Shown: positions 1-42,551 of the stretch, one piece after another
Position numbering within the stretch: position 1 is the first letter of the stretch
Layout of the letters: the number at the start of each line of letters is the position of its first letter
Assembly (NCBI GenBank): GCA_965237675.1
Contig: OZ250150.1
Span: forward strand, 5,540,659-5,604,658
Reading direction: 5' to 3'
DNA length: 64,000 bases
Source of the DNA: Candidatus Latescibacterota bacterium
Lineage (GTDB): Bacteria; Latescibacterota; UBA2968; GCA-2709665
Position numbers and translations under genes: made by a program
Notes under the pieces: model-generated
Databases searched by the model: none
The model's input: only the letters and a program-made list of their open reading frames with translations
What the model was told of the DNA's origin: nothing

Positions 1-1680
1 TGGCCACGACGGCCAGATGAGCCTTTTCCCATCGGGCGAAAACGCCACCTGCCCTACCGCCCCCCGTGTACGCTCAGGGATGGTGATTTCTGCTCGGCTC
101 TCCACGTCCCATAGCCTGACGGTGGCTTCGTCGGTTTTCCAGGAATCGCCTGACCCGGAGGCGAGCAGCGTTCCATCGGGAGAAAAAGCCACCGCATTGA
201 TCATAGCTGCATGTCCTTCCAGAGTAGCGATCTCCTTTCGGCTCCCGACGTCCCACAGCCTCACCGTGCGATCCTCCGACCCGGAAGCCAGTAGAGCCCC
301 GTCGGTGGAAAACGCCACGGATCTGACTGAACGCGTATGCCCTTCGAAGGTGTCAATCAGCTCCCGGTTCCTTACGTCCCACAGCTGGATCGCTAAACCC
401 CGTGGCGAGGCGAGCAGGTCTCCCTCGGGTGAAAACGCAATCGCATCGCCACCCGCGCCTTCGAGAGTCCCGATCCGTTCGCGTGTGCTCACGTCCCACA
501 GAATGAATGAACCAGAACCCCACGGCCCGGCTGCAAGGATGGATTCGACGGGCGAAAACGCCACGGACCCGACGTGGTCCGTATCTCCCCTCAGGATAGC
601 GATCTCGTATGGCGAACTCTCGGTAAGGAACGAATTCGACTCACTCACGTTCCCTTCCGCATCGACGGAGACGATGAGAAGGTGATGTCTGGGCTGATCG
701 GAGAGGTTCGTAAAGCCCCGTTCCCAGAAGCTGCCGTCATAGTTGAACTCAACGACGGCGTCCGTTTTGCCGAGCACACCACGACACGGTTTGGCGTTGC
801 CGATCAGGCCCACCTGATGAAGTCCCTCCGAGTCGCTCACCCGGAGCTTGACCGGGACGCTTTTCAATCCGGACTGATATCTCGTGGACGACGTGATCTC
901 CACGGTTGGCGGCGTCCCCTCCTCTATCGGACTGTCGGGATTGAAGCAGGTATGCACGGACAGGAATTCCGCGGCGCACGACGACAACTCGGACCGACGA
1001 CGACCGCCATAGGACATGATGTACCGATTGTCTCTGAAGTCGTGGTACAGTCCGAAGGTATGTCCGAGTTCATGAGTCACCGTGAAGAAACCGAACCTGT
1101 CCGGCACCACCAGATAACCGCCATTTTTCGTCCGCCGCCGTCCGACCCCTCCCGCAGGCTGACCATTGCCCTGACGAAGCGCATCAGTACCCAGGACGAT
1201 GAAGTAGATGTTCGCATCCAGATCGAACGCCTGTTCGAGCTCTTCCATCACCGCCCACCCAAGGGTGTTGTCGTAGTGACTGAAGGGATGCCGTCCGTCG
1301 ACGCGATGCACCAGCGGCTCGCCCTGGGCATCGGTCTCGATGCCGAAGGTCCAGTCGCCGTAGCCGTGGGCCTGCATCTGCTCGCGGTAGAAGGTCTGAC
1401 TCTGCTTGATCACCGTCTTCATCGAATCGACCACGTCCGAGCGGTACGGCCAGTCGTTCGGGAGGAAGTAGATCATCCGAACCGTGCGCGTTGCGCCGAC
1501 GTTTAGATCGGCCGGTCGCTTGGCCGCGGGGCGGGTGGGGTCCAGCCGCGACTGCTCGAAGTCGAAGGCGCAGAAATTCATGCTGTCTGCGGGCGGGGGA
1601 GAAGCGCGGGCGGCCGACAGGGGGGAGAGGAGGAGGCCCAGTAACAGGATGATGCCGAGATGAAGAACGGGAGGTTTCAT
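1..1680 (-). CDS. Secreted metzincin Zn-metalloprotease plus WD40 repeats; 3' end runs off the window, so it is absent from the ORF track
   Basis: Read manually: ATG at 1680 after AAAGCAGG. MKPPVLHLGIILLLGLLLSPLSAARA signal peptide, then PAAKRPADLNVGATRTVRMIYFLPND; VTHELGHTFGLYHDFRDNRYIMSYG (HExxHxxGxxH plus Met-turn) at ~1010-1080; WD40 motifs toward position 1. Paralog of 1841-4960. Confidence 0.9.
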   Translation of the reverse strand, partial: MKPPVLHLGIILLLGLLLSPLSAARASPPPADSMNFCAFDFEQSRLDPTRPAAKRPADLNVGATRTVRMIYFLPNDWPYRSDVVDSMKTVIKQSQTFYREQMQAHGYGDWTFGIETDAQGEPLVHRVDGRHPFSHYDNTLGWAVMEELEQAFDLDANIYFIVLGTDALRQGNGQPAGGVGRRRTKNGGYLVVPDRFGFFTVTHELGHTFGLYHDFRDNRYIMSYGGRRRSELSSCAAEFLSVHTCFNPDSPIEEGTPPTVEITSSTRYQSGLKSVPVKLRVSDSEGLHQVGLIGNAKPCRGVLGKTDAVVEFNYDGSFWERGFTNLSDQPRHHLLIVSVDAEGNVSESNSFLTESSPYEIAILRGDTDHVGSVAFSPVESILAAGPWGSGSFILWDVSTRERIGTLEGAGGDAIAFSPEGDLLASPRGLAIQLWDVRNRELIDTFEGHTRSVRSVAFSTDGALLASGSEDRTVRLWDVGSRKEIATLEGHAAMINAVAFSPDGTLLASGSGDSWKTDEATVRLWDVESRAEITIPERTRGAVGQVAFSPDGKRLIWPSWP

Positions 1681-1762
1681 CGTGGTATCCTGCTTTCGAA
1701 AAGTCGCTATCCCAAACTCTCGATCTCGGGCACTACGAGGACAGCCGCGGTGCAACGCCACA

Positions 1763-1792
1763 GTTATGGACAGGTTACGCGGCCGCGTCCAA
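1763..1792 (-). promoter_or_regulatory. Putative sigma70-like promoter TTGGAC-N18-CATAAC
   Basis: Same position and AACCTGTC pre -10 motif as the paralogous leader at 5043-5072 (offset 3280 bp, same as the start codons). Confidence 0.45.
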
Positions 1793-1840
1793 CAAGCCTC
1801 AACAAACGCTTTCGAACCAGAATTGTGCGGACCTTCAGTT

Positions 1841-4800
1841 TTACGAGGTTGTTTTTCCGAAGGCGCCGTCGAAGATCAGAAAATCGCCGAACCCGATGGC
1901 GCCGTCCTCATCCAGATCGTACCGCGCATCGTATCCAGCATGACCTTGACTTCGCCCAAATGCGGAGGCAAATAGCAAAAAGTTGCTGAAACCGACGGTC
2001 CCATCGCCGTCGAAGTCGGGATTGGGAGTTAGAGGGGCGATGTAGGGCGAAATATCCCACAGCAACATTGTGCCGTCCGATGCTCCGGAGACCAGGGTGG
2101 CGCCGTCGCGCGAAAACCCAACGGAATGGACCCAACCCGTGTGCCCTTCCAGTGTGGCGATCTGTTCTCGGGGCTCCACGTCCCTCAGCCTGACGGTGCG
2201 GTCCCACGACCCGGAAGCCAGAAGTGCGCCGTCGCAAGAAAACGACATGGAACCGACCCCGGACGTGTGCCCTTCAAGAGTGGCAATCCTTGCCATTCTG
2301 GCCGCGTCCCACAGCCCGACCGTGCCATTCTGATATCCCAACGCCAGAGTAACTCCATCGCTAGAAAGCGCCATCGTGGACAAGAACCCATGACCGGACA
2401 CACCGGCGGCATCGCCCGTCTCCACGTCCCGAATCAACACGGTGCCGTCAGAGGCGCCGGAGACCAGGGTCGCGCCATCGGACGAAAACGCCACCGAACT
2501 GACACCCTCAGTATGTCCTTCCAGCACGGCGATCGGTTCACCACCGGGCACGTCCCACAACTTGATCGTCTCATCACCTGACCCAGACGCGAGCACTTTT
2601 CCATCGGGCGAAAATGCCACCGAACCGACACCCTCAGTATGTCCTTCCAGCACGGCGATCGGTTCACCACCGGGCACGTCCCACAACTTGATCGTCTCAT
2701 CACCTGACCCAGACGCGAGCACTTTTCCATCGGGCGAAAATGCCAACAAGACATTTCCCTCATGGCCTTCGAGGGAGGCGATCTGGTCTCCGCTGGCCAC
2801 GTCCCAAAGATGAATCACGCCATCCTGAATCGCGCTATCCCATGCCAAGGTAGCCCGACGGGTTCCATCGGGCGAAAGCGCAAAGCCTTCGAGCGAGGTG
2901 ATCCGGTCTCCGCCGGCCACGTCCCAAAGATGAATGGCGGTACCAGACCCGGAAGCCAAACGGGTTCCATCGGATAAAAACGCCAACGAATGGACCGCCT
3001 GCGTATGGCCTTCGAGGGAGGCGATCTGGTCTCCGCTGGCCACGTTCCACAAACGCACTGTGTAATCACTGAGCAACCGCACGCCGGCCGCGATCATTTT
3101 CCCATCGGGGGGTGAAAACGCCACCGAATGGACGGTCTCCGTATAGCCTTCAAGGGAGGCGATCCGGTCGCCACTGGTCACGTCCCATAACCGCACCGTA
3201 TTTTCACTTAACTCGGGGAAAAACGAAGGAAAAAACGCGTCTCCCAACCCGGCCACGAGCATTTTCCCATCAGGGGGCGAAAACGCCACCGAAGCGACTC
3301 CATCGGTATGGCCTTCGAGCGTGGCGATATTCGTGTTCGTCGCCACGTCCCACAACTTCACCGTCTCATCAAATGTTCTTCCTCCTGACGCGATCAATTG
3401 GCCATCGGGCGAAAACACCACCGAAGCGACCCCATCGGAATGGCCTTCGAGCGTGGCGATATCTGTTTTCGTCGCCACGTCCCACAACTTCACCGTCTCA
3501 TCATTTGATCCGGATACGAGCATTTTCCCCTCAGGCGAAAACACCACCGAAGCGACCCCATCGGAATGGCCTTCGAGCGTGGCGATATTTGTCTTCGCCG
3601 CCACGTCCCACACCTTGATCGTCCTGTCCCAGGATCCCGACGCCAAGATGACGCCGTTTGGCGAAAAAGCCACCGAATTCACCCCGTCTGTATGCCCTCT
3701 CAAGTTGGCAATCTGCGTGGTGGACTCCAGGTGCCACACTGTAATCATCCCGTCCCAAGACCCGGTTGCCAGAATGGCGCCATTGGGCGAGAAGACCACC
3801 GAACCGACGTCGCTATTTGCGCCGTGCAGGGTTGCAATCTGGTGTGGGGACATTTCCGAGAGCACGAAATCCGTGTAGCCTACGTCTCCCTCTGAATTGA
3901 CAACCTGAATGCGAATCGGATGGGCAACCGGATCCGAAAGACTGGATCCGAAGGAAGATGGAATGGTACCGTCATACTCGAATTCCACGACAGCATCTCT
4001 TCCGCCTGACAATCCGCGACACGCCTTGATCTCGGACACTCCGGCAGTGATGTCTATGTCCCTGGTTACAGCGAAGAGGATCACTTGGTGAAGGTCGTAC
4101 GAGCCGCCAACCTTGAGTTGGATCGGCGCGCTCCTGGTACCAGCCACATAAGTCCGCGACGAAACGAGCTCAGCGGTCGGTCTACGCTCCCAGTCACTTT
4201 CGAGAGAGCTTTCGTCATTAAAGTACGGATTTACGGCCAGAAACTCCGCAGCACACGCTGACAGTGAGTTTCGTCTCCAACCTCCGTACGACATGATATA
4301 CCGATTGTCCCTGAAATCGTGCAGCAGCCCGAACGCATGTCCCAGTACGTGGGCTACGGTTATAAAGATTACACTGCTAGGAACCAGGGCACTGCCGCGC
4401 TTCTTGTAACCTCCACCGGTTCCCCCCGCACGACGCCCTCCGCCCAGGCCGATTGCATTTATACTATGGTCAACGACGATCAGGTAGATGTTCTCCTGGA
4501 GGTCGAAGATCAGATCGATCTCGTCATAGACAACGTGGGTGTTATCCAAATAGTGGCTGTCCGGGTGCTGCCCGACCACTTGATGCACGAGCGGCTCACC
4601 CCGGGCGTCGGTTTCGATGCGCAAGGTCCCCATGCCGTACCCGTGCGACTCCATCTGTTCGACAAAGAAGGTCTGAGCCTGGCGAATCCTGACGCTTATC
4701 GAATCGATGACTTCCTGCCGGAAAGGACGGTCGTTGGGCAGGAAGTAGATCATCCGCACGGTGCGGGGTTCGCCCACGTTCAGGTCCGCCGCGAACTTAG

Positions 4801-4960
4801 CAGCGGGGAGGGGATGCTCCCGCCGCCATTGCTCGTAATCGAAAACCACACAGGAGTGGACGCTGTCGGCCGGCGGAGACGACGCATGGGCAGACGACCG
4901 CGGGAAGACAACAAGGCCGAGCACAATACAAAAAGCGGATTTTAGGACCGAAGGTTTCAG
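1841..4960 (-). CDS. Secreted metzincin-like protein with catalytic Glu>Val, long WD40 array and C-terminal class B dockerin-like domain
   Basis: Within ORF 1841-5083. The position homologous to the paralog's ATG is CTG at 4958-4960. Motif AHVLGHAFGLLHDFRDNRYIMSYG; many GH...VAFSPDG...LWDV repeats; ends PDFDGDGTVGFSNFLLF...YDLDEDGAIGFGDFLIF. Confidence 0.85.
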   Translation of the reverse strand: MKPSVLKSAFCIVLGLVVFPRSSAHASSPPADSVHSCVVFDYEQWRREHPLPAAKFAADLNVGEPRTVRMIYFLPNDRPFRQEVIDSISVRIRQAQTFFVEQMESHGYGMGTLRIETDARGEPLVHQVVGQHPDSHYLDNTHVVYDEIDLIFDLQENIYLIVVDHSINAIGLGGGRRAGGTGGGYKKRGSALVPSSVIFITVAHVLGHAFGLLHDFRDNRYIMSYGGWRRNSLSACAAEFLAVNPYFNDESSLESDWERRPTAELVSSRTYVAGTRSAPIQLKVGGSYDLHQVILFAVTRDIDITAGVSEIKACRGLSGGRDAVVEFEYDGTIPSSFGSSLSDPVAHPIRIQVVNSEGDVGYTDFVLSEMSPHQIATLHGANSDVGSVVFSPNGAILATGSWDGMITVWHLESTTQIANLRGHTDGVNSVAFSPNGVILASGSWDRTIKVWDVAAKTNIATLEGHSDGVASVVFSPEGKMLVSGSNDETVKLWDVATKTDIATLEGHSDGVASVVFSPDGQLIASGGRTFDETVKLWDVATNTNIATLEGHTDGVASVAFSPPDGKMLVAGLGDAFFPSFFPELSENTVRLWDVTSGDRIASLEGYTETVHSVAFSPPDGKMIAAGVRLLSDYTVRLWNVASGDQIASLEGHTQAVHSLAFLSDGTRLASGSGTAIHLWDVAGGDRITSLEGFALSPDGTRRATLAWDSAIQDGVIHLWDVASGDQIASLEGHEGNVLLAFSPDGKVLASGSGDETIKLWDVPGGEPIAVLEGHTEGVGSVAFSPDGKVLASGSGDETIKLWDVPGGEPIAVLEGHTEGVSSVAFSSDGATLVSGASDGTVLIRDVETGDAAGVSGHGFLSTMALSSDGVTLALGYQNGTVGLWDAARMARIATLEGHTSGVGSMSFSCDGALLASGSWDRTVRLRDVEPREQIATLEGHTGWVHSVGFSRDGATLVSGASDGTMLLWDISPYIAPLTPNPDFDGDGTVGFSNFLLFASAFGRSQGHAGYDARYDLDEDGAIGFGDFLIFDGAFGKTTS
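2501..2745. repeat. Recent tandem duplication of one WD40 repeat (126-bp period)
   Basis: 2501-2619 and 2627-2745 are identical; they encode SPDGKVLASGSGDETIKLWDVPGGEPIAVLEGHTEGV twice. Confidence 0.9.
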
Positions 4961-5042
4961 TGTGATAACCTGCTTTCCAGAATCAGCTATCCCAAGCTCA
5001 CGATCTCGGTTCGTAACGTTAGAGGCGCGCTGCCACGCCACC

Positions 5043-5072
5043 GTTATAGACAGGTTGTGTTGCTGCGTCCAA
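5043..5072 (-). promoter_or_regulatory. Putative sigma70-like promoter TTGGAC-N18-TATAAC
   Basis: Minus strand TTGGACGCAGCAACACAACCTGTCTATAAC, conserved with 1763-1792. Confidence 0.5.
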
Positions 5073-5126
5073 CAAGCCCACAAAGACCCCGTCGAACCAG
5101 CAAGGCACGAATCTAACGGATCTCGC

Positions 5127-6420: not shown

Positions 6421-6455
6421 CGCGTCCGGTCGAGCAATGCGGCGGTGGTTTGCAT

Positions 6456-13700: not shown

Positions 13701-13940
13701 GAGGATCACGCCGATCAGAGGCGTTCTCACGCCCGCAGCGAAAACTTCGATCGCAATGGTCTTTCCATTTCCGGAAACCGTGCCTGCGATGACGCCGTCA
13801 TCCATCCGGTTGCCTGCTCCGCCATCGGCAATCAGATCAACGGAGAGTATCGCATTCGCATTCGGGCCGGCAAAGACTTGACCCGTAAATGTCAGCGACT
13901 TTAGAACGAGGAAAAACAACAGGCCTCTTCTGGAAGTCAT
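10782..13940 (-). CDS. Adaptor-scaffoldin-like protein: 2 cohesin-like modules + class B dockerin-like + CARDB-like + 6 YWTD repeats + leishmanolysin-like (M8) protease
   Basis: Signal peptide; two ~150-aa modules with LKFDFDASLLAFV...GFLARAEF; PDFDGDGTVGFNDFLLF; MYWTD repeats; HEMAHVLGFG...GHW...DELMT...LSAITIQSLADHGY. Confidence 0.85.
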   Translation of the reverse strand: MTSRRGLLFFLVLKSLTFTGQVFAGPNANAILSVDLIADGGAGNRMDDGVIAGTVSGNGKTIAIEVFAAGVRTPLIGVILKFDFDASLLAFVKAENSAFPLTLPADSTGANFATRTPVTLAPSGFLARAEFETVADVTGREFSIRIAMVTLAESTTSIDVLTTTNVISFNATPPPGADGTDVLSLDLIPDGGMGNRIDDGVTSGTVAGRGQTIAFEVFAEGMRTPLIGMVLKFDFDASLLAFVKAENSAFPLTLPADSTGANFASRTPVTLAPSGFLARAEFETVADVTGREFSIRIAMVTLAESTTSSDVLTTTNVITFNATPSPDFDGDGTVGFNDFLLFAGQFGKQRGDAAFDARYDLDGDGAIGFSDFLIFAQNFGKDVSSPGGRSSDLVVEAPTVSNGTLTPGQSFTLSVTVRNRGDGPAASTELRYYRSPDAMISGSDTQVGTGAVWGLAASGVVDASIRLHAPSSAGTYFYGACVEPVSGESDTGNNCSSSVAVTVAPRATPTGVSMLYWTDWGTDKIQRANLDGSVIEDLVVGGGLDGPDGLALDVAGGKMYWTDAGASRIQRASLDGSNVENLVTGLGIPYGLALDVSDGKMYWTDRQTSRIQRSDLDGAIVEDLITSGLVFPGELTLDVQGGKMYWTNPGSQKIQRANLDGSQVEDLVTSGLGSPTGLAVDVSGGKMYWTDRRTDKIQRAGLDGSQVEDLVANGLDKPNGLAVDVTGGKMYWADAGTNKIQRANLDGSNVEDLLTGADGLVDPSGVAVGGAPSPFRIEIVFLESDSGDGFSASQKALFHRSAARWTSIITGDIPDSDFSDNPVDEWDDDLNKRIRVNDFVDDLRIFVGIGDIDGVRGTLGRGGTLIVQRNRLSGALVTKIGSIAIDKDDLTWMSDTFLLEVILHEMAHVLGFGTFWKTLNLVRGDSDRYFTGPLAILAFDNAGGRHYSGPKVPVESDSGHWRGSVFGDELMTASIRPDVEGSLPLSAITIQSLADHGYQVDVSQADEYRLPDPLSAKLVAEHFLDWGDCIAEGPVNVVDGNGRVVDVVGRQK
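12985..13703. repeat. Near-identical duplicated cohesin-like module (453-bp period)
   Basis: ~12985-13250 matches ~13438-13703 almost base for base. Confidence 0.85.
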
Positions 13941-15387: not shown

Positions 15388-15536
15388 CGAGGGAATCCTT
15401 TCGGTTTCCGATTCCACAAAACGTGCCCACTTCCGCCGGACCCGGTTCCCGCGCGAAATCGCGGCGGCCCGACTCCCGCAGGGGTTGGGTGGGCTTCGCT
15501 TCAGCCAGGGTTCATCGACAGCAGGCCCATATTCGC

Positions 15537-18052: not shown

Positions 18053-18666
18053 CTACGCACCGAACGCATCCACAAACTTGAAAAAGTCCGCGAAATTTAC
18101 CGTACCGTTGCCGTCCAGATCAAAACGCGCATCGGTACCGCCGAACGCATCGGCAAACAGGAAGAAGTCGATAAAGTCGGTCCTCCCGTCGCCATTGAAA
18201 TCCGTCGTCGCTTGATCCTGCGCCAGGGGCGTTACGGTATGCCACGCCGACCATGGGCTTTCGTTAGAACCGCTTACCGCCCGCACCTGTACGTCGTACT
18301 GCTCGCCACCGGCCAGACCGGTCAACTGGTGGCTCAGCGCCCCGGATCCGGTCGTCCAGACGTCCTCAACCACGGTCCAGTTCGCGTCGGCCTTGTCTGG
18401 GGCGTTGCTGCGGACGTAGCGCAGATCGTAGGCAGTGACGGCTGAGCCGCCCTCGTTCGTTGGCGCTGTCCATGTAATGGTGAACGAGCCACGACCGGCC
18501 GTCACCGCAAGGATATCGGGCGCGCCCGGTGGGGAGATGTTCGTGGAAGGCATATTGTAGGCATAGATCTTAAGGTCAAAATCATCCGCCACCCACATGG
18601 TCGTGCCGTCCGACCAGATCCCCTCCGGGTTGTCGTTGCCGGCGGCGCCCAGCGAATTGAAATCTT

Positions 18667-25684: not shown

Positions 25685-25775
25685 GAGTCTATTCCTTATC
25701 CTTGGCACGATGCGGTGGATAGTGCGCCTCTCGCTGCAAACGCGGTCCGATGGAATCCGCGCTCAACGCTTGAAT

Positions 25776-28801: not shown

Positions 28802-28839
28802 AACTTCCTCCTTTACATCGAATGGGGTAACGTAGACGC

Positions 28840-33406: not shown

Positions 33407-36400
33407 CTATCCCGACGTGCCGAAGGCGTCAACAAACTCGAAGAAGTCGGCGAAGTCCACCGTGCCGCTGCCGTCGAGGTCGAATTTGGCGTCGGTGCTG
33501 CCGAAGGCATCCACGAAATCGAAGAAGTCGGCGAAGTTCACGATGCCGTCATCGTTGAAGTCGGCTGTGACCTGTCCTTGCGACCCGGTACAGTCCGGCA
33601 GATTGAGCTTGTCCAGGTCATTACCGAGGATGTCCCGCAATTCAGGGGGGATGCACCCTGTCAGGGTGTTGCCGGCGAGGTACAATAACGTCAACCGGGT
33701 CAGACTGCTGAACGTGGAGGGAATGGATCCCGTCAGCTTGTTATCGTCCAGGCGCACTTCCTGCAGCAGACTCAGGTTACCCAGTTCCGCCGGAATCGGG
33801 CCGGTCAACTGATTACCGAAGATGAGCAACTGCCACAATTCAGACAGGCGACCCAGTTCGGCCGGTATGGGCCCGGTCAGCCGGTTGCCCTGCAGGTTCA
33901 ATATCTTCAACCGCGGCAAATCACCCAGCCACGTGGGGATCGTTCCGGTCAACTGGTTGTGCTGGAGGGCAAACTGCCTCAGGTCGGTCAGGTTCCGCAG
34001 TTCCGCGGGGATTTGCCCGGTCAACCGGTTATTCATCAGGCCCAGGTGCGTCAGGCCGGTCATCGTACCCAGTTCCGCCGGTATGGTCCCTGTCAACTGG
34101 TTGTACGCGAGGTATAGCGCTTTCAGGCCGGTCAGGCGGCTCAACACAGCCGGTATCGTTCCGTTCAAGCTCTCGTTCCAAAGTCTCAAATTCGTTACGC
34201 GCTGCGGCGTCCCGCTAAGCGTGACACCGTCCCAGGTGGAGATTAGGGTGGTTTCGGACCAGTTCAGCGTCGCCGTCCCGGCCAGGGGGTCCCGCGCTTC
34301 CAGCAGCGCGTTGCAGTCGGATACCAGCCACGGGTTGGCAGCCGGGTTCGGCACCGCGCCCCCGGTTGCGCACCGGCCCTGCGGCGCCGGAGGCGTGGGG
34401 GCGGTGGGGGTCGCGAGGGCCAGGCCGAAGGGATTGTCCAGGCCGTCGGCTCTGGTCACAAGGTCTTCGACGCTGGATCCGTCCAGGTTCGCACGCTGGA
34501 TCTTGTCGGTGTCGAGGTCGGTCCAGTACATTTTGCCTGCGGCCAGATCCAGGTCCACTTCGATCGGTTTATCCAAACCCCGCGTGACGAGGTCTTCGAT
34601 ATTGGAACCGTCCATGTCTGCGCGCCGGATCTCGCCGGTTTCGCGATCCGTCCAGTACATCTTGCCGCTGGCGATGTCCAGCGCTAATCCGCTGGGACTC
34701 CCGAAACCGCTTGTAATCAGGTCCTCGACGTTGGAGCCATCCAGGTCCGCACGCTGAATCTTGTCCGCGGACGAGTCCGTCCAATACATCTTGCCGCCGG
34801 ACACGTCGAGCACCAGGCCCGCAGGACTGTTCAGACCCCCGGCGACCACCAGGTTCTCCACATTGGAACCGTCCAGGTCCGCACGCTGAATCCTGTCTGT
34901 ACCCCAGTCCGTCCAGTACATCTTGCCGCCGGACGCGTCCAGCGCCAGCCAGACCGGCGTGTGCAAACCGCTGGTGACCAGGTCTTCCACGTTGGAACCG
35001 TCCAGATCGGCTCGCTGAATCTTCTTCGTACTCATGTCCGACCAGTACATTTTCCCTGCGGACACGTCCACCGCCAGCCCGACCGGGGTATCTAGACCGC
35101 GGGTGACCACGTCTTCAACGTTGGAACCGTCCAGATCGGCCCGTTGGATCTTGTGCGTGCCCCAGTCCGTCCAATACAGCTCCGGCATGGCCTGCGGTTC
35201 GCCCACGTCGGTCAGGTTGATCCTCACGCCAATGGTAACGCTGCCGCCCTGGCCGTCGGACACCCGCACCGTAACCTCGTAACGGTTCTTCACCTCGTAG
35301 TCGTATACGACGCCCGAATTGGTCTGTAGCTGACCGCTGGTTGAGACGAGGTTGAAACTCGCCGCATCGGTCCCTTCCAGGCTGTAGGACAGAGTGCCGC
35401 CGTCGCTATCCGCCGCGCTCACCGGGTTGCCGATGTTCTGGCCGGCACCCGTATTCTCGGCGAAGCTGCGCGTGGCGCTTGCGCCCTCGCTGAACGTCGG
35501 TACCTGGTTCGTTCCGCCGCTGGTCCCCGCGGTCACGGGTAGAGTCGCGGTAAGGGGGTCGCCGTTGTAGTTCGCTATGGCACCCGCGCCCACCGTGAAC
35601 GTCAGCGTACCGTCGCTGTCGATGTCGCCGCTGAACGTGAGCTCAACCGTCGTCACCGTGTCACTCACGCGGTTTATCCCGAATCTGGCCACGTTGACGC
35701 CTGCAATCCCCGATGCCGACACGGCATCCCGAATGTCCAGGGCGGACCGTGTGTAGGATGCGCCCGAGAGTGTGAGTGTCACCACACTGCCGTTCAGCGT
35801 CGCTTCCGTCAGCGGTGACACTGTCGATGCCGTCACCGATTCCATCCCCGCGCTCACCGGCAACTGCGCCGTCAGCGCGCCGCCGCTGTAGTTTGCTATG
35901 GCACCCGCGCCCACCGTGAACGTCAGCGTACCGTCACTGTCGATGTCGCCGCTGAACGTGAGCTCAACCGTCACCTTTGTGTCGCTCACGCGCTGCACGC
36001 CGAAAGTGCCCACGCTCACGCCCGTTATGCCCGATACCGTCACGCCACGCCGAACGTCGAAAATCGAACTCGCGTATGCACCGCCCGTCAGTGTCAGTGT
36101 TACCACACTGCCATTCAACGTCGCTTCGGTCAGCGGAGACACTGTCGATGCCGTCACTGATTCCATCCCCGCGCTCACCGGCAGTTGATCCGTGAGCGCG
36201 CCGCCGCCGTAGTTCGCGATCGCCCCGGCGCCCACCGTAAACGTCAGCGTGCCGTCCGCGTCGATGTCGCCGTTGAACGTGAGCGCTAATGTCACCTTTG
36301 TGTCGCTCACACGCTGCACGCCAAATGTGCCCACGCTTACACCGGTGATTCCCGAGACGGTCACACCACGCCGAACGTCGAAGATGGATCTTGCATACCT

Positions 36401-38191
36401 ACCGCCCGTCAACGTTAATGTTACCACGCCCCCGTTAAGTGTCGCCTCGGTCAACGGAGACACTGTCGATGCCGTCACGGATTCCATCCCCGCGCTCACC
36501 GGCAGTTGATCCGTGAGCGCGGGGCCGTTGTAATTCGCGATCGCACCGGCGCCCACCGTGAACGGCAGCGTTCCGTCCGCGTCGATGTCGCCGTTGAAGG
36601 TCAGTTCAACCGTGACCACCGTGTCGCTCACACGCTCGATACCGAACGTGCCCACGCTCACGCCCACAATACCCGATACCGACACACCACGTCGAACGTC
36701 GAAGATGGAACTCGCGTACCTACCGCCCGTCAACGTCAGCGTCACCACGCTGCCATTCAGCGTCGCTTCCGTCAACGGTGACAATGTCGATGCCGTCACT
36801 GATTCCATCCCCGCGGTGACCGGCAGTTGATCCGTGAGCGCGGGGCCGTTGTAATTCGCGATCGCCCCGGCGCCCACCGTGAACGTCAGCGTACCGTCAC
36901 TGTCGATGTCGCCGTTGAACGTCAGTTCAACCGTCACCTTCGTGTCGCTCACGCGCGTTACGCCGAACGTTCCCACGCTCACGCCAGCAATCCCCGATAC
37001 CGTCACACCTCGCCGAACGTCGAAGATGGAACTCGCGTATCTGCCGCCCGACAGCGTCAGAGTCACAAGGCTGCCATTCAGCGTCGCTTCCGTCAACGGT
37101 GACACCGTCGTCGCCGTCACCGATTCCATCCCCGCGGTGACCGGCAGCTGATCCGTGAGCGCGGGGCCGCTGTAGTTCGCGATCGCCCCGGCGCCCACCG
37201 TGAACGTCAGCGTACCGTCACTGTCGATGTCGCCGTTGAAGCTGAGTTCAACCGTTACCTTCGTGTCACTCACGCGCTCGATACCGAACGTGCCCACGCT
37301 CACGCCTGCTATGCCCGATACCGTCACGCCTCGCCGGACGTCGAAGATGGAACTCGCGTATGCACCGCCAGTAAGCGTCAACGTCACCACACTGCCATTC
37401 AGTGTCGCCTCCGTCAACGGAGACGTTGTCGATGCCGTCACCGACTCCATCCCTGCGCTAACGGATAACTCCGCGGTGAGTGCGGCGCCGCTGTAGGACG
37501 CGATTGCGTCAGCCCCGACCGTGAACGTCAGCGTACCGTCCTCGTCGATGTCTCCGTTGAACGTGAGCTCAACCGTGACCTTCGTGTCGCTCACGCGCTC
37601 GATACCGAACGTGCCCACGCTCACGCCTGCTATGCCCGATACCGACACACCGTCACGGACGTCGAAAATGGAACCCGCGTATGCACCGCCCGCCAACGTC
37701 AACGTCACCACACTGCCATTCAGCGTCGCCTCCGTCAACGGTGACGTTGTCGATGCCGTCACCGACTCGATCCCTGCGCTAACGGATAACTCCGCGGTCA
37801 GTGCGGCGCCGTTGTAGGATGCGATCGCCCCCGCGCCCACTGTGAACGTCAACGTCTCGTCTTCGTCGAAGTCACCGTTGAAGTCGAGCTCAACCGTCAC
37901 CTTCGTATCACTTACGCGCGTTATCCCGAACGTCCCCACGCTCACGCCAGCAATGCCCGATACCGACACACCACGCCGAACGTCGAAGATGGAACTCGCG
38001 TAGGCGCCGCCCGAAAGCGTCAGCGTTACCACGCTGCCATCCAGCGACCCTTCCGTTAACGGCGACGCTGTCGAAGCCGTCACCGACGGGCTGTTTCCCT
38101 GGGCGTAACCCAAACCCGGCAGGGCAAATGCCATCAAGACGACAACCAGTGACATCAAGGCGAATTGCCGATTCGTAAATGGCCATTTCAT
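33407..38191 (-). CDS. Secreted protein: 8 x 107-aa beta-rich repeats + cadherin + 6 YWTD + plant-type LRR + class A' dockerin-like
   Basis: SVTAST.SPLTEATLNGSVVTLTL...TLTFTVGAGAIANY x8; NQVPTF...DYEVKNRYEVTVRVSDG cadherin; L.L..NQLTG.IPAELG.L LRRs. Confidence 0.9.
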   Translation of the reverse strand: MKWPFTNRQFALMSLVVVLMAFALPGLGYAQGNSPSVTASTASPLTEGSLDGSVVTLTLSGGAYASSIFDVRRGVSVSGIAGVSVGTFGITRVSDTKVTVELDFNGDFDEDETLTFTVGAGAIASYNGAALTAELSVSAGIESVTASTTSPLTEATLNGSVVTLTLAGGAYAGSIFDVRDGVSVSGIAGVSVGTFGIERVSDTKVTVELTFNGDIDEDGTLTFTVGADAIASYSGAALTAELSVSAGMESVTASTTSPLTEATLNGSVVTLTLTGGAYASSIFDVRRGVTVSGIAGVSVGTFGIERVSDTKVTVELSFNGDIDSDGTLTFTVGAGAIANYSGPALTDQLPVTAGMESVTATTVSPLTEATLNGSLVTLTLSGGRYASSIFDVRRGVTVSGIAGVSVGTFGVTRVSDTKVTVELTFNGDIDSDGTLTFTVGAGAIANYNGPALTDQLPVTAGMESVTASTLSPLTEATLNGSVVTLTLTGGRYASSIFDVRRGVSVSGIVGVSVGTFGIERVSDTVVTVELTFNGDIDADGTLPFTVGAGAIANYNGPALTDQLPVSAGMESVTASTVSPLTEATLNGGVVTLTLTGGRYARSIFDVRRGVTVSGITGVSVGTFGVQRVSDTKVTLALTFNGDIDADGTLTFTVGAGAIANYGGGALTDQLPVSAGMESVTASTVSPLTEATLNGSVVTLTLTGGAYASSIFDVRRGVTVSGITGVSVGTFGVQRVSDTKVTVELTFSGDIDSDGTLTFTVGAGAIANYSGGALTAQLPVSAGMESVTASTVSPLTEATLNGSVVTLTLSGASYTRSALDIRDAVSASGIAGVNVARFGINRVSDTVTTVELTFSGDIDSDGTLTFTVGAGAIANYNGDPLTATLPVTAGTSGGTNQVPTFSEGASATRSFAENTGAGQNIGNPVSAADSDGGTLSYSLEGTDAASFNLVSTSGQLQTNSGVVYDYEVKNRYEVTVRVSDGQGGSVTIGVRINLTDVGEPQAMPELYWTDWGTHKIQRADLDGSNVEDVVTRGLDTPVGLAVDVSAGKMYWSDMSTKKIQRADLDGSNVEDLVTSGLHTPVWLALDASGGKMYWTDWGTDRIQRADLDGSNVENLVVAGGLNSPAGLVLDVSGGKMYWTDSSADKIQRADLDGSNVEDLITSGFGSPSGLALDIASGKMYWTDRETGEIRRADMDGSNIEDLVTRGLDKPIEVDLDLAAGKMYWTDLDTDKIQRANLDGSSVEDLVTRADGLDNPFGLALATPTAPTPPAPQGRCATGGAVPNPAANPWLVSDCNALLEARDPLAGTATLNWSETTLISTWDGVTLSGTPQRVTNLRLWNESLNGTIPAVLSRLTGLKALYLAYNQLTGTIPAELGTMTGLTHLGLMNNRLTGQIPAELRNLTDLRQFALQHNQLTGTIPTWLGDLPRLKILNLQGNRLTGPIPAELGRLSELWQLLIFGNQLTGPIPAELGNLSLLQEVRLDDNKLTGSIPSTFSSLTRLTLLYLAGNTLTGCIPPELRDILGNDLDKLNLPDCTGSQGQVTADFNDDGIVNFADFFDFVDAFGSTDAKFDLDGSGTVDFADFFEFVDAFGTSG
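35530..38090. repeat. Eight tandem 321-bp coding repeats
   Basis: 107-aa periodicity; antisense shadow ORFs recur at 36558/36879/37200/37521 (321-bp steps). Confidence 0.9.
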
Positions 38192-38204
38192 AAGTCAGCT
38201 ACCC

Positions 38205-41200
38205 CTATTCAAAGGTGCCCCTTGTGACGCGTCCGCCCTCGATGCTGCATCCTCCGGCAGCGACGCAAGTATAACGGGTTCCATCCTGAAGTTCGATCAG
38301 GCCGCCATTCTGGAAGCTGAGTACCGCGCGCCCTCCGCTTATTGTGAGGTTTGCATTCCGAAGAAGCCGTGGAACAAAGAAGCCGGTTGGGAAATTCGGG
38401 AGTGCGTCGCCGACGCCATAGGTGCCGCCACTGCTGCCGCCGACGGCGCTTACGGCCAGTCCCGATGGATCGACCAAACCGTCGGCGCTGGTGAGGAGGT
38501 CTTCGACGTTGGATCCATCGAGATCCGCGCGCTGGACCTTGTCCGCGTCGACGTCCGTCCAGTACATCTTGCCACCGGAAACGTCGAGATCCAACCCGTT
38601 GGGGCTTGTCAGGCCGCTGGTGACCAGGTCTTCGACGCTGGAACCGTCGAGACCGGCGCGCTGGATCTTGTGGGTTCCTCGGTCCGTCCAGTACATCTTG
38701 CCGCCTGATAAATCGAGAGCCAGGCCGGTGGGGCTGCTCAGGCCGCTGGAGACCAGGTCTTCAACGTTGGATCCGTCGAGATCCGCGCGCTGGATCTTGT
38801 CCGATCCGGGGTTCGTCCAGTACATCTTGCCGTTTGCAACGTCCAGAGCGATTTCACCGGGAAATGCCAGGCCGGCCAGGGTGAGGAGGTCTTCAACATT
38901 GGAGCCGTCCAGATCGGCGCGTTGAATCTTGCCGTTCTGCCGATTCGTCCAGTACATCTTGCCGGCGGACACGTCAACGGCCAGTCCGTACGGAATGCTC
39001 AGGCCGCTGGTGATGAGGTCCTCCACGTTGGAGCCGTCCAGATCAGCGCGCTGGATCTTTGCCGTACCCGTGTCCGTCCAGTACATCTTGCCGGCCGCCA
39101 TATCCAGGGCCAATCCGTCCGGCCCATCGAGTCCCGCGCTGCTCACCAGGTCTTCGACGTTGGAGCCGTCCAGGTCGCCGCGCTGAATCTCATCGGTGCC
39201 CCAGTCCGTCCAGTAAAGCTTCGACGCCACGGTGGGAGGCGGCGGTGGCGGCTGCGACGCGACTGTGACGCTCACAGCGGAGGAGCAGTTGTTTCCCGTG
39301 TCGGACTCGCCAGACACGGCATCCACACAGGCTCCGTAATAGTAGGTTCCGGAATTCGATGGGGCTGTCAAGTTAATCGATAGAGCCAGATCAATCGATC
39401 CACCATTCCCGCCGGAAGCCGGAAGGCCGTTCACGGCATCAGTGCCGACTTCCGTGTCGGTCGTCGAAATGTTCGCGTCGATCGATCGGTAGTAACGCAA
39501 CGTCGTCGCCGCGGACATACCATCACCCTGGTTGCGAACGGACGCACCCAGCGTAAAGGAGGCGCCGGCAGCGGGGCTGCTGTTGCTGACGGAAGGCGAT
39601 ACGACGACCAGGTCGGCAGCGCCTCCGCCACCACCGCCGCCACCATTACCACCGCCCCCGTTGCCTCCACCCGTTGCCGCCGTCCCCACGGCCACTCCCG
39701 ACGGATCGACCAGTCCGTTGGCTCCCGTAACCAGGTCTTCCACGCCCGAGCCGTCCAGGTTGGCGCGCTGCACCTTATTCGTTCCCGCGTCGGCCCAGTA
39801 CATCTTCCCGCCGGATACGTCAAGGGCCAGACCGTTTGGGCTATGCAAGCCGCTGGTGACCAGGTCTTCGACCCCTGAACCGTTGAGGTTGGCGCGCTGA
39901 ATCTTGTCCGTGCGCCGGTCGGTCCAGTACATCTTGCCGCCAGGTACATCCAGGGCGAGGCCGGTGGGACTGCTCACGCCGCTGCTCACGAGGTCTTCGA
40001 CCCCGGAGCCGTCCAGGTTGGCGCGCTGGATCTTATTCAGGCCCGGGTTCGTCCAATACATCTTGCCGCCGGACGCGTCCAGGGCCAATCCACCCGGAAA
40101 CGTAAGGCCGCTTGTAACAAGATCTTCGACGTTGGCGCCACTCAGATCGGCCCGTTGGATCTTGTTCGTCTGCCGGTTCGTCCAGTACATCTTGCCACCC
40201 GTCATGTCCAGCGCCATACCGTACGGTATTCCCAGGCCGGTGACCAGATCTTCAACATTGGAACCGTTGAGATCGGCCCGCTGTATCTTGTTGGCGCCCG
40301 CATCCGTCCAGTACATCTTGCCGCCCGCCATATCCAGCGCCAGTCCATCCGGGCCGTCCAAACCGGCGCCGGAGACCAGGTCTTCGACCCCCGAACCGTC
40401 CAGGTTGGCGCGTTGAATCTTGTCCGTGCCCCAGTCCGTCCAATAAAGCTTCGATGTTCCGGGGGCAGGCGGAGTCTGCGTCGTTACGGTCAGGGTGACG
40501 GCAGAAGAGCAGTTGTTACCGGTATTGGACTCTCCGGAAACCGCGTCGACACACGCTCCGTAGGTATAGGCGCCCGCGCCCGTTGGCGCCGTCAGGTTGA
40601 TCGACTCGGCGCTGGCGCCTGAGGCTGAAAGTCCGCTCACCGCGTCCGCGCCGACCTGCGTATCGCTCGTGGAAACCGACGCGTCGGTCGAGCGATAGTA
40701 GCGCAACGTCGTCGCGGCAGACGATCCGTTACCCTGGTTGCGGACGGTCGCACCCAGCGTGAAGGTCGCCCCCGAAGCCACGTTATTGTTGCTGACCGAA
40801 GGCGATTGAACAACGAGATCAGGGCTCCCGCCGTTCCCGCCGCCCGTTGAAGGCGGCGGACCTCCAAAACTCGCCGCAAAGATCAAAAAGTCCGTAAAAC
40901 CGATCGAACCATCGGAATTCAGATCGATCCCTGCATCGTACGTCCCATCGCCCTGCCGGGACCCGAACACGCTTGCAAAAATCAGGAAGTCGGAAAATCC
41001 AACGAAGTCATCGCCGTCGAAGTCGGGGGATGGCGAGGCGTTGAACGTGATCACGCCGGTGGTTGCGAGTTCGTCGCTCGAGGTCGTACTCTCGGCGAGC
41101 GTGACCGACTCGATGCCTATCGAAAACTCCCGCCCGGTAACGTCTGAAACCGTCGTAAACTCCGCGCGCGCCAGAAAGCCGGACGAAGCCAACGTAGCGG

Positions 41201-41549
41201 GGTTACCCGTTGCAAAGTGGGTGCCGGTCGAGCCTTCCGGAAGCGTGAGGGGAAACGCGCTGTTTTCGGCCTTGACAAAGGACAGGAGGGAAGCGTCAAA
41301 GTCAAATTCGATAGTCATACCGATCAGAGACGTCCTCACGCCCGTTGCAAAAACCTCGACGGCGATGGTTGTGCCCCGACCGGAAACTGTCCCCGACGTA
41401 ACCCCATTATCCGTCCGGTTGCCGGCCCCTCCATTGGGAATGAGGTCAACCGACAAAACGGCATTTGCATTGGGTCCGGCATACGCATGACCCGCAAAGA
41501 CCAGCAACCCGAGGACGGCAATCAACAACAAGCTCTTTTTAAAAGACAT
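38205..41549 (-). CDS. Adaptor-scaffoldin-like protein: cohesin-like + class B dockerin-like + 2 x (CARDB-like + 6 YWTD) + small C-terminal domain
   Basis: GAGGAG RBS, ATG at 41549 (MSFKKSLLLIAVLGLLVFAGHAYA). N-terminal module is homologous to those of 10782-13940; PDFDGDDFVGFSDFLIF...DLNSDGSIGFTDFLIF. Confidence 0.87.
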   Translation of the reverse strand: MSFKKSLLLIAVLGLLVFAGHAYAGPNANAVLSVDLIPNGGAGNRTDNGVTSGTVSGRGTTIAVEVFATGVRTSLIGMTIEFDFDASLLSFVKAENSAFPLTLPEGSTGTHFATGNPATLASSGFLARAEFTTVSDVTGREFSIGIESVTLAESTTSSDELATTGVITFNASPSPDFDGDDFVGFSDFLIFASVFGSRQGDGTYDAGIDLNSDGSIGFTDFLIFAASFGGPPPSTGGGNGGSPDLVVQSPSVSNNNVASGATFTLGATVRNQGNGSSAATTLRYYRSTDASVSTSDTQVGADAVSGLSASGASAESINLTAPTGAGAYTYGACVDAVSGESNTGNNCSSAVTLTVTTQTPPAPGTSKLYWTDWGTDKIQRANLDGSGVEDLVSGAGLDGPDGLALDMAGGKMYWTDAGANKIQRADLNGSNVEDLVTGLGIPYGMALDMTGGKMYWTNRQTNKIQRADLSGANVEDLVTSGLTFPGGLALDASGGKMYWTNPGLNKIQRANLDGSGVEDLVSSGVSSPTGLALDVPGGKMYWTDRRTDKIQRANLNGSGVEDLVTSGLHSPNGLALDVSGGKMYWADAGTNKVQRANLDGSGVEDLVTGANGLVDPSGVAVGTAATGGGNGGGGNGGGGGGGGAADLVVVSPSVSNSSPAAGASFTLGASVRNQGDGMSAATTLRYYRSIDANISTTDTEVGTDAVNGLPASGGNGGSIDLALSINLTAPSNSGTYYYGACVDAVSGESDTGNNCSSAVSVTVASQPPPPPPTVASKLYWTDWGTDEIQRGDLDGSNVEDLVSSAGLDGPDGLALDMAAGKMYWTDTGTAKIQRADLDGSNVEDLITSGLSIPYGLAVDVSAGKMYWTNRQNGKIQRADLDGSNVEDLLTLAGLAFPGEIALDVANGKMYWTNPGSDKIQRADLDGSNVEDLVSSGLSSPTGLALDLSGGKMYWTDRGTHKIQRAGLDGSSVEDLVTSGLTSPNGLDLDVSGGKMYWTDVDADKVQRADLDGSNVEDLLTSADGLVDPSGLAVSAVGGSSGGTYGVGDALPNFPTGFFVPRLLRNANLTISGGRAVLSFQNGGLIELQDGTRYTCVAAGGCSIEGGRVTRGTFE

Positions 41550-41702
41550 TGGGTAACACTCCTCTGTGCCAGGGAAGATTTCCGTCCGGACGTTGCCTCG
41601 GTGTGAAATTGGACGCTTAATTTCGCAACGTCGTGACCGACGCGCCTGCACCTGCTTTGCCGCAGGACTGAAAGGCGATGCCGACCGCCTGTACAGCTTC
41701 GT

Positions 41703-41726
41703 GGCATCCCTGAGTTCAGAGATGCC
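41703..41726. terminator. Stem-loop just downstream of the cohesin-CTD gene
   Basis: GGCATC-C-CTGA/GT/TCAG-A-GATGCC inverted repeat. No U-tract, so it may be an RNA stabiliser or processing hairpin rather than a terminator. Confidence 0.3.
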
Positions 41727-41741
41727 GTATGTTCTTCAGAC

Positions 41742-42551
41742 CTACTTCAATAACAACATTCGTTTGGAAGCCGAGAATGCGCCGGCCTGTATCCGATACA
41801 GATAGATGCCGCTTGCAACGCGCCTGCCCAACGCGTCCGTCCCGTCCCACGTTGCCGAAAACGATCCGGCATCCCTCCGTTCGTTCACCAGTACCCGCAC
41901 CTCCTGGCCCAGCAGATTATATATCGACAGCCGGACCGCCCCGGCCTCGGGCAACTGAAAGCCGATCACGGTGGCGGGGTTGAACGGATTCGGCATATTC
42001 TGCTCCAGATTGAATCGAACCGGCAATGGCTTCAGATCACCGATTTCAGCATGGGTCAACATGTCGACGGCGCCATCCAGACCGACCAGAACGCTTTCCG
42101 ATACCTGAAAATCAGACGACGCCGGTGTGCCGCTCGTCCTGAACACAAGCTCGACGAGCTTCCCGTCGCCGCTGGCGCCCTGGCGGTCGACCTTCACAGC
42201 GCCGATATCCACCTGTCCCGGCGTCCGGTTCGAGGACAGGAATAGCGTCTCCTGCCCGAAACCGGATTTCAGCAGGTTGCCGTCCAATTCCGTGGCATTC
42301 ACGAACTCGTATTTCACGGGATCGAATTGCAGCGAAAATCCGTATCCCTTCAGATCATTGGCCTGCGCCAACGTGACACGCAACTTCAGAATTCCGCTGT
42401 CGGCGTCCGGGTCATTCACGCGCTCCAGCTTGAGCGTTGCAGAGGCGTTCCGGCCGCCGGTAATGGTCAATCCGCGGGTCATGTCGCCGGCAAGTGCCGG
42501 TCCGGTCAACACAAACGCCGCACATACGGATGATATAAGACGAGTCCACAT
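41742..42551 (-). CDS. Cohesin-like domain + FlgD-Ig/T9SS-type CTD; putative anchoring scaffoldin
   Basis: AAGGAGG RBS, ATG at 42551, signal peptide; ANDLKGYGFSLQFDPVKYEFV...ASGDGKLVELVFR cohesin pattern; LEQNMPNPFNPATVIGF...WDGTDALGRRVASGIYLYRI...KRMLLLK. Confidence 0.85.
   Translation of the reverse strand: MWTRLISSVCAAFVLTGPALAGDMTRGLTITGGRNASATLKLERVNDPDADSGILKLRVTLAQANDLKGYGFSLQFDPVKYEFVNATELDGNLLKSGFGQETLFLSSNRTPGQVDIGAVKVDRQGASGDGKLVELVFRTSGTPASSDFQVSESVLVGLDGAVDMLTHAEIGDLKPLPVRFNLEQNMPNPFNPATVIGFQLPEAGAVRLSIYNLLGQEVRVLVNERRDAGSFSATWDGTDALGRRVASGIYLYRIQAGAFSASKRMLLLK

Follow-up and report, generated by a model that had tools for sequence, protein, structure and literature searches.

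Overview of the locus

The window analysed here is a stretch of 64,000 nucleotides (G000:C1:5540659-5604658) from a genome of 5.61 Mb in three contigs, with 58% G+C and a completeness rating of 99.93%. Across positions 1-42551 all long open reading frames (ORFs) but one are found on the minus strand, and they form an island of genes for secreted proteins in which cohesin-fold domains (sockets) occur together with dockerin tags (plugs). We hold with fair confidence that this island provides an uncultured bacterium of Gemmatimonadota/Latescibacterota type with a cohesin-dockerin assembly kit that is non-cellulosomal.

The sockets are found in three genes, all on the minus strand. The lead gene (41742..42551) encodes the anchor, a protein of 269 residues counted from the ATG at 42551, with a signal peptide, a cohesin (about residues 35-175) and a type A sorting domain of a type IX secretion system (T9SS; residues 185-269). 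Its close homologues come from metagenome-assembled genomes (MAGs) labelled Gemmatimonadota or Candidatus Latescibacterota. Adaptor 1 (38205..41549) has a signal peptide, one cohesin-fold domain (41037-41477), a type B dockerin (40848-41045), two CARDB domains and two YWTD propellers, as read from the sequence and from Pfam. Adaptor 2 (10782..13940) consists of a signal peptide, a pair of cohesin-fold domains (13431-13868, 12975-13412), a type B dockerin (12786-12980), CARDB, a YWTD propeller and an M8-like HEMAH zinc site. The remaining genes of the island are mostly cargo, i.e. proteins that carry a tag and no socket.

Dockerin tags

An earlier note on this stretch had described 11 co-oriented ORFs that share a duplicated calcium-loop-helix tag. 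All 11 are on the minus strand, and each contains two copies of the motif D-x-[DN]-x-[DN]-G-x3-[F/L]-x-D-F, every copy being followed by a helix-like stretch rich in F and L. In the alignment of the 11 tags 17 columns are invariant and both calcium loops are in register in every sequence, and the hidden Markov model (HMM) of the tag scores the named ORFs at 74-92 bits. The number of proteins has to be adjusted: nine of the tagged ORFs are intact genes, while each of the other two is the rear part of a broken gene, in one case frameshifted and in the other split by an insertion sequence. Further, the ORF at 1-1761 is a twelfth tagged member, as seen from the continuation of the genome past the window.

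The note had also spoken of one shared tag. The duplicated module is indeed dockerin-like, but it comes in two classes. Type A has a period of 27 residues, is strictly C-terminal and contains a DFF-x-F-x-DA-x-G helix; it is carried by the eight genes that start at 6456, 14041, 15537, 18053, 21290, 25776, 30431 and 33407. Type B has a period of 33 residues. It is C-terminal in 1841-5083 and in the gene that leaves the window (1-1761), and internal in the two adaptors, where it directly follows the cohesin domains (residues 327-385 in 10782-13940, and residues 209-265 in 38205-41549, numbered on the longer ORF).

The best solved match of the 11-tag profile is the dockerin of 2y3n_B, from a Pseudobacteroides cellulosolvens complex, with an E-value of 1.2e-8 and an alignment that spans both repeats and the linker. 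This dockerin outranks the calmodulins, which match the profile by one 17-residue loop at a time. Stand-alone EF-hand calcium buffers, which had been raised as a competing possibility, are therefore rejected: calmodulins match single loops, and the dockerin matches the whole module. Each of the eight type A tags is matched by the NCBIfam family NF041540 (dockerin_GC), and three score above its cut-off of 29 bits, including those of genes 33407..38191 (32.2 bits) and 30431..33337 (34.6 bits).

A genome-wide count with the tag HMM, as proposed in the earlier note for the tags, gives 103 ORFs in 5.61 Mb, i.e. the tag is not confined to the window. When all six frames of the genome are scanned with Pfam Dockerin_1 (PF00404), 30 of the 52 matches are above the cut-off of 22.9 bits, and the tag of adaptor 2, at 23.1 bits with neighbours added, is just among them. 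Judged by these profiles, the window tags represent two classes of dockerin module with calcium loops and, because so many matches in the same genome pass the cut-off, form the divergent end of a continuous dockerin family.

Cohesin domains of the anchor and the adaptors

The cohesin-like sandwiches seen earlier in 10782-13940 and 38205-41549 are N-terminal domains, two in the former and one in the latter, and the lead gene, which had been read as cohesin-like with a C-terminal domain, has one sandwich in front of its sorting tail. The CARDB domains were considered as candidates for the sandwiches and rejected, as they are separate and recognised by Pfam in the same proteins.

For the anchor, a structural model was built with 23 homologues; its predicted local distance difference test score (pLDDT) is 67 overall and 64-83 across the domain. 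Foldseek returns nearly only cohesins as top matches (best E 5.3e-9), and VIA-align gives a Z of 14.1 and a root-mean-square deviation (rmsd) of 3.1 over 137 residues, the top 45 entries all being cohesins. The model of the cohesin-fold domain of adaptor 1 has a pLDDT of 96.1. Its best Foldseek match is the cohesin 2vo8 (E 1.7e-5), and its VIA-align Z is 12.2, with an rmsd of 2.8 over 123 residues and cohesins in all of the top nine places. The closest folds are non-cellulosomal cohesins of Clostridium perfringens, with Z 12.2, 12.1 and 11.9. Judged by these fold matches, both the anchor and the adaptor domain show the topology of cohesins, a jelly-roll beta-sandwich of nine strands.

At the sequence level the two families behave differently. 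Single-sequence searches of solved structures find no cohesin for either the anchor or the adaptor sandwich, and the anchor profile reaches solved cohesins weakly, those of NagJ at E 0.02. The anchor has 278 homologues, some of which have a precomputed PF00963 hit. One of its paralogues scores 27.8 bits with Pfam Cohesin (PF00963), and this and four other proteins of the genome exceed the cut-off of 24.1; the anchor HMM also reaches two proteins of the same genome, at E 4e-19 and 9e-19, that score 46.6 and 45.9 bits with Pfam Cohesin. For the adaptor domain, 1.84 billion proteins yield only 185 representative clusters at E <= 0.001, and many of these repeat the order of a sandwich followed by a 'PSPDFDGDG' dockerin. 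Both domains of adaptor 2 belong to this family (E 6e-64 and 1e-62 with a local HMM). By profile comparison the anchor family borders on the Pfam Cohesin family and the adaptor family does not. We class the anchor as a borderline member of the cohesin family; the adaptor domain has the cohesin fold, and it is this fold and the context that speak for its membership. A predicted complex of the adaptor cohesin, two calcium ions and a type A tag scored 0.09, with a mark of 0.32, which is evidence neither way.

Pairing of cohesins and tags

In this genome the adaptor-type cohesin is found in the two window proteins, with three domains, and as one weak hit elsewhere. All eight type A tags of the genome are in this window, and there are six anchor paralogues.

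The co-occurrence of the adaptor cohesin and the type A tag was studied in 22 genomes of the family, this one included. An adaptor cohesin was counted at a best E-value <1e-60, because its model also contained dockerin columns, and one moderate case at 1e-35 that covers the cohesin part was added; a type A tag was counted at a best E-value of 1.5e-26 or lower, the next-best value being 2e-20. Both are present in 14 genomes and both absent in six, while two genomes have the cohesin without the tag and none has the tag without the cohesin. Where both are present, the type A tags are located within a few kilobases of the adaptors. The anchor gene is directly upstream of the adaptor gene in five of the six best adaptor loci, and for the 19 best anchor loci from named MAGs a tagged ORF is found within 6 kb in 12 and a strong adaptor cohesin in four.

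Two other arrangements in the genome should be mentioned. Twice, an Ig/fn3 giant of about 2260 residues with a terminal canonical Pfam dockerin (G000:C1:1688870-1696639 and 5035761-5043466; 40.3 and 34.5 bits) adjoins an anchor-cohesin paralogue, which looks like a dedicated plug-socket gene pair. A second island of about 90 kb (G000:C1:4882788-4973147) contains some 25 type B-tagged WD40/LRR genes and an anchor paralogue (4937727-4938545).

Selection on the tags and a trace of tag exchange

Among six near-identical type A tags (15 pairs, 49 codons) there are 240 synonymous and 72 non-synonymous codon differences, while the fn3 domain directly upstream of three type A tags shows 41 synonymous and 59 non-synonymous differences. 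The likeness in DNA among the genes for type A tags starts and stops at the tag borders. The type A tag is under strong constraint at the protein level. Recent gene conversion as a cause of the tag identity is rejected, given the 240 silent differences among the six copies.

At about 6290-6418 on the minus strand, directly behind the stop of gene 6456-10709, the second half of a type B tag is preserved; it is not translated and its frame differs from that of the gene. The gene now ends in a type A tag and its relatives end in type B; because of this and of the leftover half behind the stop, the tag of this gene appears to have been exchanged from type B to type A. The leftover half fits the swappable complex that the earlier note had proposed.

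Cargo and gene order

Along the direction of transcription the island starts with a PorU-like C25 peptidase and two AraC-type response regulators, followed by the anchor, adaptor 1, two cargo genes, a small lipoprotein with a small beta-barrel protein, five further cargo genes, adaptor 2 and three metzincin-WD40 genes, the last of which continues beyond the window edge. The PorU-like peptidase (46220..51979, minus strand; Peptidase_C25 245.7 bits) has a T9SS sorting tail of its own (TIGR04183 30.2 bits). The two response regulators with AraC-type DNA-binding domains (43630..45265, minus strand; Pfam), between it and the anchor, are possible regulators, judged by their position. Beyond 53769 there is an ordinary cluster for polysaccharide synthesis. 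The stretch 33407-42734 occurs in six DNA data sets from two studies, with no RNA data set listed for it.

The two cargo genes behind adaptor 1 encode a cadherin domain, a YWTD propeller and LRR with a terminal type A tag at 33410-33580 (33407..38191), and propeller-type repeats of about 43 residues, CARDB and a YWTD propeller with a terminal type A tag at 30434-30604 (30431..33337), all according to Pfam. In the middle of the island (28229-30213, minus strand) a small outer-membrane beta-barrel protein (PF13505, 31.4 bits) is found with a lipoprotein of 148 residues that has the lipobox FAGC. The next cargo gene (25776..28031) combines a metzincin head (HELGHAFGLQHD), a WD40 propeller and a type A tag (25779-25943). 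It is followed by a gene (21290..25708; Pfam) for GLUG and propeller-type repeats, two cadherin-like domains and a type A tag (21293-21457).

The two broken genes come next. One (18053..21233) is in two pieces: a front (20481-21233) with the signal peptide, a cadherin-like domain and repeats, and a back (18053-18598) with fn3 and a type A tag (18056-18220). It is split by a transposase gene of the IS1182 family (18783-20309, plus strand; Pfam DUF772, and NF033551 at 88 bits, which is under the cut-off), the sole long plus-strand ORF of the island. A repeat unit is common to both stumps that flank this gene, and no terminal inverted repeats or target duplication could be pinned down for it. The other (15537..17478) is frameshifted near 16880; its front ORF (16825-17478) has the signal peptide, its back ORF (15537-16883) has GLUG, fn3 and a type A tag (15540-15704), and the two overlap at 16825-16883. 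This gene could be a pseudogene, or its frameshift could come from an error in the assembly. The gene in front of adaptor 2 (14041..15417; Pfam) encodes propeller-type repeats, fn3 and a type A tag (14044-14208).

Behind adaptor 2, gene 6456..10709 has a metzincin head, WD40, LRR and a type A tag (6459-6623), gene 1841..5083 a metzincin-like head without HExxH, two WD40 propellers and a type B tag (1844-2035), and 1..1761 is the N-terminal part of a further metzincin-WD40 protein, whose type B tag lies at its end outside the window. The metzincin heads of the window are thus fused to WD40 propellers. Three of the four heads keep HExxHxxGxxHD; it is lost in 1841-5083, which is possibly an inactive form used for binding only. 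Reprolysin_5 scores the heads at 28.6-28.9 bits against a cut-off of 27 (25776..28031 at 28.9) and the head of 1841..5083 at 19.2 bits. A profile of the four heads matches the O-glycan proteases 8df2/8dek (E 4e-9) and 6z2o/6z2d (E 1.4e-7, ranging to 1.5e-7), the alignment taking in part of the domain (some 165 out of 360 profile positions). The zinc site in which adaptor 2 ends matches Peptidase_M8 at 26.6 bits (cut-off 21).

A repeat of about 43 residues, with a consensus like DFNTL..AGN..P.GIWSDGTTMWVAD..D.KIYAY, recurs many times in the island. It is carried by 21290-25708, 30431-33337, 14041-15417 and 20481-21233 (minus strand), matches assorted propeller families weakly (NCH3, Arylesterase, SGL) and may represent an undescribed type of blade.

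All the cargo domains listed earlier for the island are recovered, by Pfam as WD40, Ldl_recept_b (YWTD), LRR, Glug, fn3, Cadherin-like and a Peptidase_M8 stretch, and as the Reprolysin-type heads. No glycoside hydrolase had been recognised, and Pfam finds no such family in any of the 22 window proteins scanned, among them the 11 tagged ORFs. In the genome as a whole we surveyed 88 of the 103 tagged ORFs, i.e. those outside the window with at least 150 residues, at thresholds of E <= 1e-7 and 1e-8. The best 25 families per protein were considered, so that the protease count is a lower bound. WD40 proteins dominate (33 of 88), followed by fn3, cadherin or Ig giants (about 11) and LRR proteins (seven); there are at least two S8 subtilases and at least one M10 matrixin. 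Among the matches listed there are also two heparinase II/III-like lyases, one protein like a sulfatase-maturing enzyme and one GH5 glycoside hydrolase. For 19 proteins no family matched.

Glycoside hydrolases are thus not the bulk of the dockerin-borne cargo. Neither was a multi-cohesin scaffoldin with a carbohydrate-binding module (CBM) found: no protein has more than two cohesins and no CBM family matched. By its predicted domain content the system is not a cellulosome.

Sorting tails and the type IX secretion system

The sorting tail of the anchor scores 32.8 bits with TIGR04183 (cut-off 23) and also matches FlgD_ig at 39.1 bits. SprA is above its cut-off in the genome, with 615 bits summed. 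When TIGR04183 tails are counted at E <= 1e-5, 13 ORFs of the genome have one, and eight of these also contain a cohesin: five anchor paralogues and the proteins labelled L105, L106 and L176. A ninth has a weak hit to the adaptor-type cohesin. Sorting tails go with sockets and never with plugs alone.

L176 (G000:C1:3904799-3909757) is of interest in itself, as its 1653 residues combine two Pfam cohesins and four lamin-tail domains with a T9SS tail.

A two-tier model and its alternatives

If the island is an assembly kit, it would work as follows. By its sorting tail, the small anchor cohesin would be led through the translocon SprA and then fastened to the outer membrane on its outer face. The type B dockerins of the two adaptors would plug into anchor-type cohesins, and the eight cargo proteins with a type A tag would be received by the three adaptor cohesins, a family private to the island. 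All other type B-tagged proteins of the genome would dock directly on the six anchor paralogues and on further cohesin proteins that bear a tail. This would give the cell an exchangeable coat made of metzincins resembling O-glycan proteases and of eukaryote-like binding domains (WD40, YWTD, LRR, FN3, cadherin), suited to gripping and cutting glycoproteins and not plant fibre. The earlier note had proposed a cellulosome-like hierarchy in a diderm that would build a host-interaction or proteolytic surface complex. The identities of the modules, their architecture and the recurrent order of anchor and adaptor hold, while binding, hierarchy and surface location are what we infer from them.

A number of observations weigh against this explanation. 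Some of them concern the modules. In the comparison with PF00963 and PF00404 that had been suggested, Foldseek recovers cohesin folds, but the window anchor scores 20.9 bits with Pfam Cohesin, below the cut-off of 24.1, and the sole two window tags reported by a Dockerin_1 scan of the proteins reach 18.2 and 16.6 bits against a cut-off of 22.9. The tag of adaptor 2 passes that cut-off solely in the six-frame scan with neighbours added. For the adaptor cohesin, neither Pfam nor NCBIfam offers a matching family, and a sequence search finds no solved relative that is significant (best E 0.62); in the list of folds for this domain, pilin and antigen I/II sandwiches follow close behind the cohesins, with Z about 10 versus 12.2. 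The adaptor and anchor families are not linked by profile (hhalign probability 3.8%). Finally, the co-occurrence counts come from close kin with one common syntenic island and are not independent; therefore they show conservation and not independent co-evolution.

The other observations concern export. The PorU-like protein scores 314 bits with NF033707, below the cut-off of 420. The best PorV-like stretch reaches 101.7 bits (cut-off 250) and another one in the same frame 53.4 bits, and GldL and GldM were not matched in a genome search whose controls were equally silent. The cargo proteins have Sec signal peptides and no sorting tail. In total, two of the 103 tagged ORFs have such a tail, both also with a cohesin, and no GspD and no secretin were found in this nearly complete genome. 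Because of the few tails and the missing secretin, the anchor would be on the surface without an evident way to meet its cargo. That the tagged proteins have no evident route across the outer membrane is the main unexplained point of the system.

One solution, which we regard as doubtful, is that the dockerin itself is the export ticket: more than 100 tail-less, Sec-exported proteins would plug into a cohesin in the periplasm and ride with it through the SprA pore. The type IX system of this lineage would then carry almost exclusively cohesin proteins, as eight of the 13 tails suggest, and the process would be comparable to the hitch-hiking known from twin-arginine (Tat) translocation. Such hitch-hiking would explain jointly why no secretin is found, why the cargo has no tails and why there are many small single-cohesin anchors.

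Among the alternatives to the assembly kit as described, docking in one tier has the best, though still a small, chance of being correct. Here the modules would be true cohesins and dockerins, any tag would bind any cohesin, and the adaptors would be cargo with extra sockets; the split into type A and type B would result from descent within one expanding island and not from specificity. Synteny of the island across the genus agrees with this, and the co-occurrence of the type A tag and the adaptor cohesin may reflect shared descent alone. Moreover, the two tag classes align column for column, and cohesin and tag are also joined in L105, L106 and a third protein of the genome, L137. Against it, the type A tags of eight cargo proteins that are not related to each other are near-constant in protein, in spite of numerous silent changes. 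The two classes also differ at helix positions given as cohesin contacts in known complexes, which we take to be the positions that touch the cohesin, and two cohesin families too distant to be linked by profile suggest different partners.

It is less likely that the dockerin-like tags have a role independent of cohesins, such as calcium-dependent folding, stabilisation, binding to the wall or to polysaccharides, or a signal for an unknown exporter, and that the cohesin-fold domains bind something else. The large excess of plugs in this genome, about 103 tags versus roughly 15 cohesin domains, could be taken as support, but for producers of cellulosomes a ratio of this order is the norm. Dockerin-like modules are reportedly widespread also where partner cohesins are lacking, as said to be catalogued together with non-cellulosomal cohesins and dockerins by Peer et al. 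2009, and the lack of a known route for the cargo to a surface cohesin points in the same direction. Against this, tags and cohesins share proteins and adjoin as genes, repeatedly and across genomes, and the sorting tails are concentrated on the cohesin proteins.

That the complexes form and remain between the inner and the outer membrane, or on the inward side of the latter, with the sorting tail solely an Ig-like domain of FlgD type, is very improbable: the match of the anchor tail to FlgD_ig, the undetected GldL and GldM (with silent controls) and the Sec-only signals of the cargo agree with it, but the anchor meets TIGR04183, SprA is above its cut-off, a PorU-like C25 peptidase with its own tail adjoins the island, and adhesion-type domains and mucin-type proteases would make little sense in the periplasm.

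Implications

Cohesin-dockerin assembly is understood almost entirely from the degradation of plant fibre in Gram-positive anaerobes. Here the modules are found on roughly a hundred secreted proteins of a diderm, of which almost none are carbohydrate enzymes and a third are WD40 propellers; LRR, YWTD, FN3 or cadherin proteins make up others, and some are proteases with a relationship to enzymes that cut mucin. If binding is confirmed, the system would be a general and exchangeable way to put eukaryote-like binding domains on a cell of Gram-negative type. Kamke et al. 2014 (PMC3909097) describe an abundance of such domains in sponge symbionts; the text of that paper does not contain the words 'dockerin' or 'cohesin'.

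Further, a cohesin family that Pfam and NCBIfam do not recognise and a dockerin class private to the island are candidates for an orthogonal plug-and-socket pair, and the two-tier model gives a clear prediction of the binding pattern. The export paradox, with tails on sockets only and no secretin found in the genome, bears on what a type IX system can carry.

Comparison with known systems

The clostridial and ruminococcal cellulosomes share with this island the two module folds and the logic of an adaptor that joins cohesin and dockerin. The best solved matches are cohesins of cellulosomes and of Clostridium perfringens and the dockerin of Pseudobacteroides cellulosolvens. In contrast, the hosts of cellulosomes are monoderms with surface-layer homology (SLH) or sortase anchoring and long multi-cohesin scaffoldins with CBM, none of which is seen here, and their cargo is mostly carbohydrate-active enzymes, which is not the case here.

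Closer parallels come from diderms. For freshwater Planctomycetes (Nemodlikiaceae) a 'planctosome' was proposed as a model from sequence, with a cohesin anchor, an adaptor with dockerin and cohesin, and dockerin-tagged M12B reprolysin-like zinc peptidases and M14 peptidases (Andrei et al. 2019, ISME J, PMC6461901). As presented in the main text of that paper, it resembles this island in being from a diderm, in its anchor, adaptor and dockerin-tagged peptidases, and in having no link to cellulose; Supplementary Figures 13 and 14 of PMC6461901 may hold closer architectures. According to the same text a lamin-tail domain holds the planctosome anchor in place and peptidases are the sole cargo, while the anchor of this island has a T9SS tail. 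Lamin-tail domains are, on the other hand, also present here in L176, together with two Pfam cohesins and a sorting tail. Compared with the planctosome of the main text, this genome has two dockerin classes, a cohesin family not seen by Pfam and about 100 tags, and most of its cargo is WD40, LRR or YWTD repeat proteins.

A cellulosome-like complex was also proposed for Ca. Stygibacter (Cloacimonadota), which like this island has a cohesin protein with a T9SS-type C-terminal domain and dockerin-tagged peptidases in a diderm (Williams et al. 2021, Front Microbiol, PMC8542988). In the parts of that paper that describe the complex, it is attached to the cell's own surface by the T9SS-type domain, its tagged peptidases are S8 and C25, and its host belongs to the wider FCB group. 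It has a single scaffoldin of 3,755 residues with tandem cohesins and CBM2/CBM3, and some GH18 or GH57 cargo. Here, unlike in that description, the anchors are numerous, small and equipped with one cohesin each, and two adaptors accompany them; no CBM could be recognised, and among 88 tagged ORFs one has a glycoside hydrolase. As described in these papers, both the planctosome (PMC6461901) and the Ca. Stygibacter complex (PMC8542988) are proposals without a bench test.

The N-terminal heads of four WD40 proteins match by profile the O-glycan proteases of Akkermansia muciniphila (OgpA, 6Z2D/6Z2O; 8DEK/8DF2). Here the heads are fused to WD40 propellers and a dockerin, and their protease activity and substrate are predictions.

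The architecture proposed for the planctosome and Ca. Stygibacter is thus found again, with a cohesin anchor, adaptors that join dockerin and cohesin, tagged peptidases and no cellulases in the window. Our literature search found no published account of such a system in Gemmatimonadota or Latescibacterota. The island is a variant of the diderm cohesin-dockerin kind, already proposed and never proven, and it is set apart by its open export problem, the near-exclusive coupling of sorting tails to cohesins, the two classes of tags with a private cohesin family, and a cargo in which eukaryote-like repeat proteins predominate.

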